A stretch of 64,000 bases of DNA from an uncultured Candidatus Saccharibacteria bacterium (GTDB lineage Bacteria > Patescibacteriota > Saccharimonadia > Saccharimonadales > JAUPVS01). The stretch is taken from contig CAZVKH010000004.1 in the NCBI GenBank assembly GCA_964627095.1, forward strand, positions 2,886-66,885, in the 5' to 3' direction. Shown here piece by piece: positions 5,733-12,034 of this stretch. Position 1 is the first letter of the stretch; each line of letters begins with the position of its first letter. The notes under the pieces are model-generated. The model searched no databases, was not told the origin of the DNA, and was given only the letters and a program-made list of their open reading frames with translations. A program made the position numbers and the translations under genes.

Positions 5733-6939
5733 TGGCTCTTCCCTCCCTTGTTGTTTGACCAGTTTGCGAGCTAACCGCCGCCGTTCGATATACCGTATAA
5801 CGTGAAATCTGGAAGACTAAACCAACTGCTCCCAATACAAATACCAAGCTGGTTCCACCGTAACTAATAAATGGCAGCGTAATACCCTTAAGTGGCAGCA
5901 GCCCAAGCATGGCACCGACGTTAATTAGCACCTGGGTGCTAAGCCAAGCTAAGATGCCTACCACCAGTAAGCGGCTGTAGTCGTCGGGCGCCCGCTCGGC
6001 GATGCGGAATAACCTCCTAAAGAAGGTTATGAACAACGCCACCAGCGCGGTGACACCAATAAAGCCAAACTTCTCGGCCAGAATCGCAAAGATTGAGTCG
6101 TTGGCAGCTTCGGGCAAGTAACCATAGGCTTGCACGCTGTTAGCCACACCTAGGCCAAACATACCGCCGGAGCCAACTGTTATCAGAGCTTGGCAAACCT
6201 GGTAGCCAGCATTCTGACAATCTTGCTCAGGGTGCATAAAGGTCATTAAGCGGTCGCGGCGATAACTACTGCCAGCGATCAACAGCAAGCCACCAATGGC
6301 CACAATTGCGCCCACCATCATAACGCGTTTCATCGGCATGCCGGCCACAAAGGCCATCGAGCCAATCATCGCCACCATAACCGCCGTCGAACCAAAGTCG
6401 CTCTGTACCTTACCGACCACTAAGCCAATCGCCACCATGGCTATAACCAAGGGTTGTAAGGTCTTCTTAACATCACCCAGGCTGCCCTCTTGGATTCTTT
6501 CTACCAAAAAACAGGCTAGCCAAATTAACAAAGCAAATTTAATTAGTTCAGCCGCCTGAAAAGACATGCCGCCAACTTGAATCCAGCGATAAGCGCCATT
6601 CACCCGCTCACCAAACAAGCGTACTGCTATGGCGGCCAGAGCAGCCGTAATTAACAGTGGTCGCTGCAGATGCCGCCAAAAGTTTACCGGTATATTGGCC
6701 ATGGCCACAAAGGCCACAATACCTAGGGCAATGGCAATCATCTGTTTATTCACAAAATAATTGTCACCGACCTGTTTTTGAATGGCTAGCCCGGGGCTAA
6801 TGGCATAGAGTACGATCAGGCCAATCACAATCAAGGCAGTGGCAATTAGCAAAAGCCAGTAATCTGGTCGATGGCGCCGCTGGCGGGGACCGTCTAGGTC
6901 GGTCGGCTGCTGGCGCGTTTTTACACTACCTATAGCCAT
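5659..6939 (-). CDS. ftsW: SEDS family peptidoglycan polymerase FtsW
   Basis: Multi-TM protein with RWIQVGGMSFQAAELIKF and LPLKGITLPFISYGGTS motifs. I set the start at ATG 6939 (MAIGSV) because the longer ORF overlaps mraY. The 3' tail overlaps the murG start by 74 nt. Confidence 0.85.
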   Translation of the reverse strand: MAIGSVKTRQQPTDLDGPRQRRHRPDYWLLLIATALIVIGLIVLYAISPGLAIQKQVGDNYFVNKQMIAIALGIVAFVAMANIPVNFWRHLQRPLLITAALAAIAVRLFGERVNGAYRWIQVGGMSFQAAELIKFALLIWLACFLVERIQEGSLGDVKKTLQPLVIAMVAIGLVVGKVQSDFGSTAVMVAMIGSMAFVAGMPMKRVMMVGAIVAIGGLLLIAGSSYRRDRLMTFMHPEQDCQNAGYQVCQALITVGSGGMFGLGVANSVQAYGYLPEAANDSIFAILAEKFGFIGVTALVALFITFFRRLFRIAERAPDDYSRLLVVGILAWLSTQVLINVGAMLGLLPLKGITLPFISYGGTSLVFVLGAVGLVFQISRYTVYRTAAVSSQTGQTTREGRANESAPHWRRNGGSHNPVVGRRSQA

Positions 6940-10298: not shown

Positions 10299-11180
10299 TT
10301 ATTTTTTCGCTGCGGCTCGGAGTTTTGCACTCCGGGCGCGCGGATTAATAACAATTTCGGCGTCGCTGCCACTTACCGGCTTCTTGGTAAGCAACTCAAT
10401 TCGAGCTTCGTAGCCTTCAGCGTATTCGGCCAGGGTGCGCTTAACGACGCGATCCTCTAGGCTATGAAAACTGATGACGGCCAATCGGCCTCCTGGCTTA
10501 AGCAGGTCTATCCACAGTGGTAACGCTTGTTCCAGTAAGTTCAGTTCGTCATTAACGACGATCCGAATAGCCTGAAAACTGCGCGTTGCCGGATGAACCT
10601 TACTGTGGCCCGGCCAGGCCTTGGCGACAACCTTGGCGAGCTCGGTGGTGGTGCGGAACGGTCGGTTCTGCACAATCAACCGGGCAATCTGACGCGATTT
10701 GGGTTCTTCCCCAAAGCGCCACAAGATGTCGGCCAGCTCAACTTCGCTATAGCTGTTGACGACGTCGGCAGCAGACAAGGCTTGGCTTTGATCCATGCGC
10801 ATGTCTAAGGCTGCTTCGTTGACAAAGCTAAAGCCGCGACTAGTGATGTTAAGGTGCGGCGACGATACGCCCAGATCGGCCAGTACCATGTCGTACTGTT
10901 CGTCAGCGTCGGCTAGTTGTTGACTGGCCTGCAGAAAATCGCTGTGGATTACCTTGGCGCCCTGTTTAACCAGTGGCTCTAAGGCGGCGATTGCCTGGCT
11001 GTCGCGATCGACCAAGCACATCCCTGCTGGGTTGCCCGTTTTTTCTAACACGGCTTTAGCGTGCCCACCGTAACCGGCGGTCATGTCTACGTAGCTGTCA
11101 CCGGCCTGGGGAGCCAGATATTGCAGCACCGCGTCTAACAAGACGGGTATATGTTCTTGGTTGTTTGGATCGTCTACCAT
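10299..11180 (-). CDS. rsmH: 16S rRNA (cytosine1402-N4)-methyltransferase RsmH
   Basis: Motifs HIPVLLDAVL, DMTAGYGGHA, DLGVSSPHL and ISFHSLEDRVVK. Confidence 0.9.
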   Translation of the reverse strand: MVDDPNNQEHIPVLLDAVLQYLAPQAGDSYVDMTAGYGGHAKAVLEKTGNPAGMCLVDRDSQAIAALEPLVKQGAKVIHSDFLQASQQLADADEQYDMVLADLGVSSPHLNITSRGFSFVNEAALDMRMDQSQALSAADVVNSYSEVELADILWRFGEEPKSRQIARLIVQNRPFRTTTELAKVVAKAWPGHSKVHPATRSFQAIRIVVNDELNLLEQALPLWIDLLKPGGRLAVISFHSLEDRVVKRTLAEYAEGYEARIELLTKKPVSGSDAEIVINPRARSAKLRAAAKK

Positions 11181-11218
11181 TTTGTTTTTGTTTTGGTGTT
11201 TGTTGTTAACAAGGTCAC

Positions 11219-11432
11219 CTAATTGGTAATCAGCTTTTTGTTTTTTGTTTGGAACGTTTTTGTTTTTTTAGCTGTTATTTGAAAGACGTGTGGTGTAGGT
11301 TGCCCTACGTACTTCTTCTAAATAACCGTTTTGAGAGAGACTTATGTGTGAGGTGGAGTTTTGGGAGGTGTTTTGATAAAGGTGCGAGGATTTATTTGAG
11401 TGAATCCCGGATCACTGCTGATTACCAATTAG
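11219..11432. repeat. 16-bp perfect inverted repeat enclosing 182 bp in the mraZ-rsmH spacer
   Basis: CTAATTGGTAATCAGC at 11219-11234 and its reverse complement GCTGATTACCAATTAG at 11417-11432. The interior holds further nested hairpins (GTTATTT..AAATAAC, GTAGG-TTGC-CCTAC, GGATT..AATCC). Confidence 0.8.
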
Positions 11433-11498
11433 CTAACCTCGAGACTTATGCTCGATGTCATTTGAATGCTATTTGTTAAAGAACTGAACAGCGGCCGC

Positions 11499-11849
11499 TT
11501 AGGCTGCTTTCAAACGCCAATACTTGCCGGCCCGCACTGCCACTACTTTCTGGGTAATCCCAGCGTAGTCCAGTAAATGCTGTTCAAGCGTGATGCGGCC
11601 CTGCTTTTGATCGAGCTCGTTATCACACTTTCCCATCCTGAACTGCACGTTCAGATCGGCGGTTCGCTCATCCAGGATATTACCTTGGAGTTGCGGTTCA
11701 ACTTCTTCATCCCATACCTTTTTGGGGTACAGGTGCAGGTACTTCTGGAAACCTTGGGTAATGACTACTCCGGTTAAAAACTCGTGACGCAATTCGGCTG
11801 GAATAGTCAGCCTCCGCTTGTCATCAAGTTTCCTTTCGAAATAATCCAC
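11499..11849 (-). CDS. mraZ: transcriptional regulator MraZ
   Basis: Two SpoVT/AbrB-like half motifs, LDDKRRLTIPAELR and DQKQGRITLEQHLLDYAGI. GTG start preceded by an AAGAGGAA SD. First gene of the dcw cluster. Confidence 0.8.
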   Translation of the reverse strand: MDYFERKLDDKRRLTIPAELRHEFLTGVVITQGFQKYLHLYPKKVWDEEVEPQLQGNILDERTADLNVQFRMGKCDNELDQKQGRITLEQHLLDYAGITQKVVAVRAGKYWRLKAA

Positions 11850-11923: not shown

Positions 11924-11978
11924 TTACCCACTTTTACCCACTGACCTGAATATACTACCCACCCTTACCCACACGCAA
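11924..11978 (-). promoter_or_regulatory. predicted MraZ operator (4 phased GTGGGTA boxes) overlapping the mraZ promoter
   Basis: The plus strand carries TTACCCAC at 11924, 11934 and 11965, and CTACCCAC at 11955, giving spacing of 10/21/10 bp. A TTGCGT (-35, 11978..11973) and TATATT/TAGTAT (-10, 11957..11949) flank or overlap the boxes. Confidence 0.65.
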
Positions 11979-12034
11979 CCCCTTTCCTTCCTTTTTATAG
12001 ATAAAGTACCTAAAGTTATCCACAGTTGTGTCAT

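Follow-up and report, generated by a model that had tools for sequence, protein, structure and literature searches.

The spacer between mraZ and rsmH in the Saccharibacteria stretch analysed here (the window, 64,000 nucleotides at its full length) is, with moderate confidence, the gene of a structured small RNA that is complete in itself and spans about 240 nt, closing stem included; the RNA sits at this site throughout the class. A non-coding element of ~240 nt that is kept class-wide, with a 37-nt stretch conserved like rRNA and with covarying helices, must be under strong selection. The RNA is probably an important regulator. Homologues are carried by phages, in most cases as free-standing genes.

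Structure and strand of the spacer RNA

On the minus strand of the window the dcw cluster runs from mraZ through the spacer to rsmH, a 115-aa ORF, a class B PBP gene (ftsI), mraY, ftsW and murG; the 115-aa ORF, which has no Pfam match, is a putative ftsL by its position alone. The first-pass annotation of this DNA, made from the letters, had singled out the spacer for its length, its skewed composition and its inverted repeat. All three observations hold. Both flanking genes lie on the minus strand at a distance of 318 bp (11498..11181), the mRNA strand between them has A 0.40, C 0.25, G 0.14 and T 0.22, and the 16-bp arms at 11219-11234 and 11417-11432 are exact reverse complements with 182 nt between them. 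The inverted repeat grows to 23 nt at 91% identity (11212-11234 and 11417-11439), or to ~25 bp when G-U pairs are counted, and its 16-mer has no second occurrence in the 64-kb window. From 5' to 3' the parts are the boxA-like motif, the 5' arm of P1, P2 with an H-type pseudoknot, GCACCUU, the unpaired core, P3, an A-rich strand and the 3' arm of P1. With their surroundings they are as follows.

11926..11972, minus strand: promoter region of the operon; GTGGGT occurs four times, as two pairs with 10-nt spacing (likely MraZ boxes)
11499..11849, minus strand: mraZ (116 aa; Pfam MraZ, 3.6e-13)
11474..11484, minus strand: boxA-like motif GUUCUUUAACA, 15 nt past the mraZ stop codon
11417..11443, minus strand: 5' arm of the closing stem P1 (inverted repeat, covariation)
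11400..11415, minus strand: hairpin P2, GUGA-UCCGGGAU-UCAC (compensatory changes in all 5 pairs)
11404-11408, minus strand: 5' strand of the pseudoknot, GGGAU, in the P2 loop
11387..11391, minus strand: 3' strand of the pseudoknot, AUCCU, after an A-rich linker (pairs with 11404-11408)
11379..11385, minus strand: conserved GCACCUU, family form GYACMUU (host and phage alignments)
11335..11371, minus strand: C-rich core ACACCUCCCAAAACUCCACCUCACACAUAAGUCUCUC, 37 nt, unpaired, near-invariant, single copy
11274..11327, minus strand: P3, variable three-tier hairpin (second inverted repeat)
11235..11269, minus strand: A-rich single strand containing CAAAAACAAAAAC, a block nearly invariant in the alignment
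11210..11234, minus strand: 3' arm of P1, ending in UAGGUGACCUUG (inverted repeat, covariation)
11181..11209, minus strand: C/A-rich leader before the rsmH start codon, without a Shine-Dalgarno (sequence, compared with other window genes)
10299..11180, minus strand: rsmH (Pfam Methyltransf_5, 3.4e-94)

When both strands were folded, as had been proposed at the outset, the minus-strand RNA reached z = -4.9 with 0/100 shuffles as good, whilst the plus strand folded weakly (z = -2.0). Covariation was sought in homologous spacers by means of a covariance-model alignment of 95 sequences, 92 of them distinct, and was found throughout the helices. P1 and P2 together comprise 28 pairs which are 96.8% paired, with both sides changed in 28/28; of the 345 compensatory cells and paired fractions so observed, 0/500 shuffles reach the values, and slid partner columns are 25-45% paired. 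P1 itself has 23 pairs with compensatory changes in all, and is 97.9% paired across the 92 distinct sequences. A structure-blind MAFFT alignment submitted to RNAalifold returned the same 23-pair P1 and 5-pair P2, again with many compensatory changes. Four P1 positions are mostly G-U or U-G on the minus strand and would be A-C mismatches on the plus strand; the RNA strand is therefore the operon (window minus) strand. The suggestion of an embedded structured ncRNA on either strand was thus right, with the strand now fixed as that of the mRNA. The near-invariant core, the pseudoknot, the boxA-like motif and the phage homologues had gone unnoticed at that stage.

It is highly improbable that the functional product comes instead from the plus strand, as an antisense RNA, the 76-aa ORF or a short peptide. 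The ORF does exist (11249-11479), and the complement of the core, read from the sequence, holds GGAGGTG-type sequences and a 10-codon ATG ORF. However, such a product would have to accommodate the four A-C mismatches in P1 and a weaker fold (z = -2.0 against -4.9). As coding sequence the 76-aa ORF was rejected: it has no Pfam match, and its frame is not kept open in relatives, whose longest stop-free stretches run to 26-68 codons where the window has 78. The core was likewise rejected as coding, being near-invariant with no synonymous-site pattern of variation and no start codon.

The H-type pseudoknot joins the 3' portion of the P2 loop, by base pairing, to the nucleotides beyond an AAAAA linker. 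In a register-free test of cognate against non-cognate partners it scored z ~10, and the paired sequences are diverse (AGGG/CCCU, AAGG/CCUU, AUGG/CCAU, UUGCU/GGCAA, UCGAC/GUCGA and others). Column counts in the covariance-model alignment are moderately convincing, at 64% paired with slid controls close, because that alignment loses register in these columns. Two nested hairpins had been described within the repeat. GTTATTT..AAATAAC around GTAGG/CCTAC (11274-11289 and 11311-11326) stands, whilst GGATT/AATCC is present but constitutes the strand pair of the pseudoknot rather than a simple hairpin. P3 has a median z of -3.5 in 73 homologues, with z below -2 in 92% of them, although its sequences are unrelated. 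The core is unpaired in every fold made. Pairing of GAGGU or AGGUGA in the P1 arms with the CACCU boxes of the core was considered and rejected, as it would amount to only 5 bp against the 25-bp P1 and involves bases too conserved for covariation. The 10-nt direct repeat GAGACTTATG, also remarked on in the first-pass annotation, exists at 11337-11346 and 11441-11450 but carries no weight, because its second copy is unconserved among aligned relatives.

No sense-strand promoter-like site was found inside the window spacer, and the RNA is therefore presumably made from the mraZ promoter. The region at 11926..11972 is the sole promoter-type region upstream of the RNA, and its four-repeat layout is kept in ~45 related loci (within L002-L053). 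Judged by its sequence, the GTGGGT(A) arrangement looks like the classic MraZ autoregulation site; the repeat pairs flank TAGTATATT, a -10-like box of the mraZ promoter. Just upstream of this promoter a perfect DnaA box, TTATCCACA, lies at 12016-12024 on the plus strand, and at the equivalent place two metagenome contigs, L085 (about 6085-6110) and L198, have the palindromic pair TTATCCACAAATCTGTGGATAA. The Pfam match of the 116-aa window MraZ covers residues 5-48 only. In L003-L040 the mraZ 5' UTR contains a conserved AAAAAYAAAAACCACUAG motif, similar both to the RNA's own CAAAAACAAAAAC block and to the C/A-rich leader that precedes rsmH.

At the other end of the spacer the last three bases of P1 are UUG (11203-11212 region, minus strand), which could start a 12-codon ORF whose stop falls just inside the 5' end of rsmH, 2 nt past its ATG; in an A/C-rich region such as this, open frames arise by chance. 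Elsewhere in the window a TATAAT-like box stands 6-8 nt before the start codon of many genes (e.g. minus-strand 35597, 42051, 18998, 47588 and 24250), a placement which suggests leaderless mRNAs. A Shine-Dalgarno-like sequence is present in only ~24/56 long ORFs of the window.

Conservation in Saccharibacteria and occurrence in phages

A scan with the RsmH protein, taking one genome per species, yielded 80 loci, the first 56 of them almost all labelled Saccharibacteria/Saccharimonadia. The covariance model gave one strong sense-strand match upstream of rsmH in 54/54 evaluable Saccharibacteria loci and no match in 24 loci from other phyla. Relatives without the spacer, or without covariation, would have spoken against the first-pass annotation; both checks went the opposite way, the spacer being present at the same syntenic site in each of the 54. 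In 47 extractable loci it measures 257-913 bp, with an mRNA-strand composition of about A 0.40, C 0.23, G 0.15 and T 0.22. In other phyla with a detectable MraZ (mostly 32-36% identity) the gap is about 107-172 nt by tblastn, with one exception of ~790 nt. The long mraZ-rsmH spacer is a lineage trait of Saccharibacteria.

Conservation of the core was judged without bias on loci found through the RsmH protein only. Among 48 spacers (47 species representatives and the window) ACACCUCCCAAAACUCCACCUCACACAUAAGUCUCUC is identical in 33 and slightly altered in 10 more, where the neighbouring RsmH proteins are just 49-85% identical; MraZ, at 58-90% identity among related loci carrying mraZ, is also more conserved than RsmH. 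The five most distant spacers, and L045, in which a MraZ match was not found, keep only AAACUCCACCUCACA of the core. A gut lineage that lacks mraZ has its core interrupted by a hairpin, and a TGTATAAT box, read from the sequence, stands 7 nt before the rsmH ATG, right after P1; rsmH in this lineage appears to have its own leaderless promoter after the RNA. With 23 nt of the core as query, metagenomes yielded at least 120 contigs, and those of sufficient length have the core between mraZ and rsmH. The exceptions among the contigs listed are L119, which is free-standing with a terminator-like site, and L085 and L198, where a tiny ORF takes the place of mraZ. This ORF of ~23 codons in L085 (6240-6330) and L198, MTQPISELPHKHVAGCIIAPARG, replaces mraZ whilst the boxA-like motif and the RNA are retained. 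Identity of the core in metagenome and phage copies follows from the search, because the core itself was the query.

The same distribution bears on the proposal, made when the repeat was first noticed, of a small non-autonomous inverted-repeat element. A long terminal inverted repeat around ~180 bp is what a MITE landed between mraZ and rsmH would show. Yet the sequence is single-copy in the 64-kb window and in every locus, it occupies one constant syntenic site in 54/54 loci across the class and is never patchy there, and its arms change in step, with G-U pairs that make sense in RNA only. The proposal was accordingly discarded, and the probability we attach to a MITE is close to nil.

Rfam 15 gave no match for the whole window at gathering thresholds, and a cmscan of 11100-11600 with E up to 10 gave only one chance match, to an unrelated lncRNA model; on the phage loci Rfam found tRNAs in L232 only. 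A tRNA or tmRNA identity was rejected, as ARAGORN found none in the window and none at the RNA in phage loci. No description of this RNA was found in the literature on Saccharibacteria mraZ, riboswitches and small RNAs or on Patescibacteria noncoding RNA. A 2022 transcriptome paper on strain TM7x reports no validated small RNAs in these bacteria. The RNA family is previously undescribed.

Homologues occur in 14 phage contigs, 13 from IMG/VR and the complete 44.9-kb phage genome MW202692.1. These contigs encode terminase, endolysin and tail-fibre proteins and are therefore real phages. Most phage copies are free-standing, with promoter-like and terminator-like sites. Free-standing copies with one or both kinds of site are found in L119, L245, L232, L207, L228, L237, L246 and MW202692.1, several of these calls having been read from sequence and folds rather than taken from tool output; the promoter-like site of L245, TTGACA-18-TATCAT, matches at 11/12 positions. 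The free-standing phage copies have a common layout of 5' hairpin, GYACMUU, linker, core, hairpin and A/C-rich strand. The L232 copy belongs to a phage tRNA array (332-2956), of which it is the final gene; ARAGORN counts 18 tRNA genes there and Rfam 17, arranged as two convergent blocks on either side of the RNA.

Phage copies embedded between genes can have closing stems of their own. That of L244 is 26 bp and that of L215 22 bp; neither is related in sequence to the host P1, and in both the core is unpaired inside the stem (z = -5.4 and -3.7, respectively). The L244 copy lies between structural genes, and the 3' arm of its P1 covers GGAGGA before the next ORF. In L205, L215 and L221 the copies are in leaders upstream of ORF pairs, the second ORF of L205 matching the terminase large subunit. 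A closing repeat was not found in the free-standing or leader copies scanned (L232, L207 and L205), and folds of seven free-standing copies contained no closing stem.

Two further features of the phage loci may be recorded. In L246 the RNA is directly followed (241-400) by a second small-RNA-like unit, with TTGACA-17-TATTAT, ~120 nt containing CGCUCCACC and a terminator hairpin. In L247 (4978-5127; MW202692.1 3563-3712) the phage RNA copy overlaps with UOF80545.1, which is annotated as a hypothetical protein of 49 aa but is probably a spurious gene.

Conserved RNA genes are frequent integration sites of phages. It might therefore be asked whether the core acts mainly as DNA, the host site being an attachment site attB and the phage copies attP. 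Besides this habit of phages, the identical block of about 25-40 bp common to host and phage would fit, as would the position of the copy just after the lysis genes in L228, L237, L245 and MW202692.1. We nevertheless consider it very unlikely. A crossover core alone predicts neither the promoter-like and terminator-like sites nor the closing stems of phage copies, which moreover keep the 5' hairpin, GYACMUU, the 3' hairpin and the A/C-rich strand around the core. Furthermore, integration at the host site would separate rsmH and the division genes from their promoter, and there is no integrase among the flanking ORFs tested, on contig parts.

Possible modes of action

The reading to which we give somewhat better than an even chance is that the RNA is self-contained, is co-transcribed with mraZ under boxA protection, is probably cut out at P1, and acts through its unpaired, anti-Shine-Dalgarno-like core. 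The boxA consensus GYTCTTTAANA was derived for NusB/NusE binding sites (PMC5725501). GUUCUUUAACA, at 11474-11484, matches this consensus exactly, bearing in mind that the consensus is gamma-proteobacterial and may not be that of the host. With up to 2 mismatches the boxA-like motif is present in 42/48 loci, as against 6.5% of shuffled spacers. It stays within ~50 nt of the mraZ stop even where P1 lies 150-250 nt further on, and in lineages without mraZ it stands directly before P1. In rRNA operons, protection of the boxA type carries polymerase across untranslated RNA. By its sequence, and placed as it is where mraZ translation ends, the motif here would most likely recruit NusB/NusE and so let RNA polymerase cross ~300 nt of untranslated, C-rich, G-poor RNA; such protection would be needed because a stretch of this kind is otherwise a good Rho entry site.

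By analogy with the double-stranded processing stems on either side of 16S rRNA, P1 would most likely be a module that cuts the RNA from the polycistronic transcript or insulates it, and would not be part of the working surface. This role is suggested because the closing stem is found in embedded copies and not in free-standing ones, although the L205 leader copy has no closing stem, which counts against it. The earlier idea of a long-range RNA processing element is plausible, from the closing stem of gene-embedded host and phage copies and its absence from free-standing copies.

The working surface would consist of the unpaired core and the upstream GCACCUU, which between them carry three CACCU(C/U) boxes resembling the 16S rRNA 3' tail CACCUCC. 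Most likely the RNA acts in trans. It may pair with purine-rich sequences of the Shine-Dalgarno type or hold a conserved factor that recognises C-rich single strands, and phages may carry their own copies to exploit the same host interaction. In keeping with a trans-acting small RNA with a C-rich seed, some members have promoter-like and terminator-like sites of their own. Neither the 64-kb window nor ~1.5 Mb of related loci, a small fraction of any genome, yielded a target with extended complementarity to the core; duplex energies computed across the window, and a search of every locus for complementary 10-mers, returned only the RNA's own antisense strand. The 37-nt invariant run is far longer than a typical small-RNA seed and thus points to a large partner such as the ribosome, RNA polymerase or a multidomain protein.

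A role in cis, in expression of the dcw cluster, is a serious alternative to action in trans. The RNA would then be the leader of rsmH and the downstream division genes, working as a sensor of the riboswitch kind, as an attenuator that depends on Nus/Rho, or as a signal for processive antitermination made up of boxA and a structured RNA, like lambda nut, HK022 put or Bacillus EAR; this we hold to be possible but rather unlikely, and the corollary that the RNA governs to what extent transcription or translation runs on from mraZ into the operon is put forward just as tentatively. The host copy invariably precedes rsmH directly, on the sense strand and with the boxA-like motif upstream; its single-stranded region has the C-rich, G-poor make-up of Rho entry sites, and the pseudoknot and conserved junction bases recall riboswitch aptamers. 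Among the phage copies, those in the long leaders of L205 (before the terminase large-subunit match) and L215/L221, and that of L244 with its P1 arm over GGAGGA, could be read in the same way. By contrast, what comes after at least seven free-standing copies is a terminator-like hairpin or a convergently oriented gene or tRNA array, which leaves these copies nothing downstream to regulate. The gut-lineage rsmH, with what appears to be its own leaderless promoter past the RNA, would likewise escape such control. In the window the spacer has no sense-strand terminator-like site and P1 sequesters no rsmH Shine-Dalgarno. A riboswitch proper was rejected on similar grounds, there being no such terminator-like site, no Shine-Dalgarno at rsmH to sequester and no gene downstream of free-standing copies.

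A more doubtful possibility is that the RNA is a class-wide housekeeping RNA whose unpaired strand imitates the single-stranded 3' minor domain of 16S rRNA, and serves as decoy or docking site for a ribosome-maturation or translation-initiation factor. CACCUCC is common to the core and the anti-Shine-Dalgarno tail, and ACACCUCCC...UCACACAU in the RNA may be compared with ACACCGCCCGUCACACCAU around C1402 of 16S rRNA, the base methylated by RsmH. Were such mimicry real, it would link ribosome status to the division operon that holds the RNA, and the phage copies, one of them in a tRNA array, would reset host translation.

Its place at the head of the cell-division and cell-wall cluster, together with the phage-borne copies, makes the RNA a concrete candidate for division or translation control in these epibionts. 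Saccharibacteria and other bacteria of the candidate phyla radiation have tiny genomes, and few regulators are known in Saccharibacteria. The phage-borne copies make the RNA a candidate for phage takeover of the host as well. Catalogues of RNA families gain an entry that they lacked, and at least one public record, that of UOF80545.1 in MW202692.1, would be corrected. At least two Saccharibacteria can be cultured with their hosts, and experiments on this RNA are thus feasible.

Comparison with known systems

A number of parallels can be drawn with characterised RNAs. The host copy resembles 6S RNA in its long closing stem, its terminal hairpin and the large internal strands left unpaired. However, no 6S model was matched in Rfam, sequence invariance at this level is untypical of 6S RNA, and free-standing members are without the closing stem, so that the rod-with-bubble shape is not a family trait.

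Antitermination RNAs, namely HK022 put, Bacillus EAR and lambda nut, likewise occupy promoter-proximal positions or lie between early genes of long host or phage operons, and nut and rrn sites contain boxA as this RNA has a boxA-like motif. They differ in that many copies here have no downstream operon, and no Rfam model is similar.

The C-rich surface recalls several trans-acting RNAs. In RsaE/RoxS and RNAIII of Firmicutes, unpaired C-rich motifs pair with Shine-Dalgarno regions, whilst DicF is a prophage small RNA which is cut from an operon and blocks ftsZ translation. The present RNA has in common with this group an unpaired C-rich surface between hairpins, a promoter and terminator of its own in some copies, and links to phages and to the cell-division cluster. 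It has no sequence relationship to them, its conserved stretch is 37 nt rather than a short seed, and no target was found in the loci scanned.

The leader of rRNA operons has the same order of parts: a boxA, here boxA-like, the 5' arm of a long-range stem of ~25 bp, an enclosed structured RNA and the 3' arm. The enclosed RNA here is, by contrast, ~190 nt long, is not rRNA and lies inside a protein-coding operon. With 23 covarying pairs P1 attains the ~20 bp or more of long-range double strand expected of an RNase III-type processing stem, and by analogy it may be cleaved in the same manner; stems of this type have analogues in the embedded phage copies, at 26 and 22 bp.

A parallel in position is the mraW motif of Rfam, which is, like this RNA, a conserved structured RNA upstream of mraW/rsmH on the sense strand, at the head of the division and cell-wall cluster; the present RNA also lies in the 5' UTR of mraW/rsmH, downstream of mraZ. 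The mraW motif is actinobacterial and thus of another phylum, and the spacer has no match to its model even at E up to 10. Furthermore, the RNA described here exceeds it in size and is set apart by a pseudoknot, a near-invariant unpaired core of 37 nt and a boxA-like motif; in phages it also occurs as free-standing genes.
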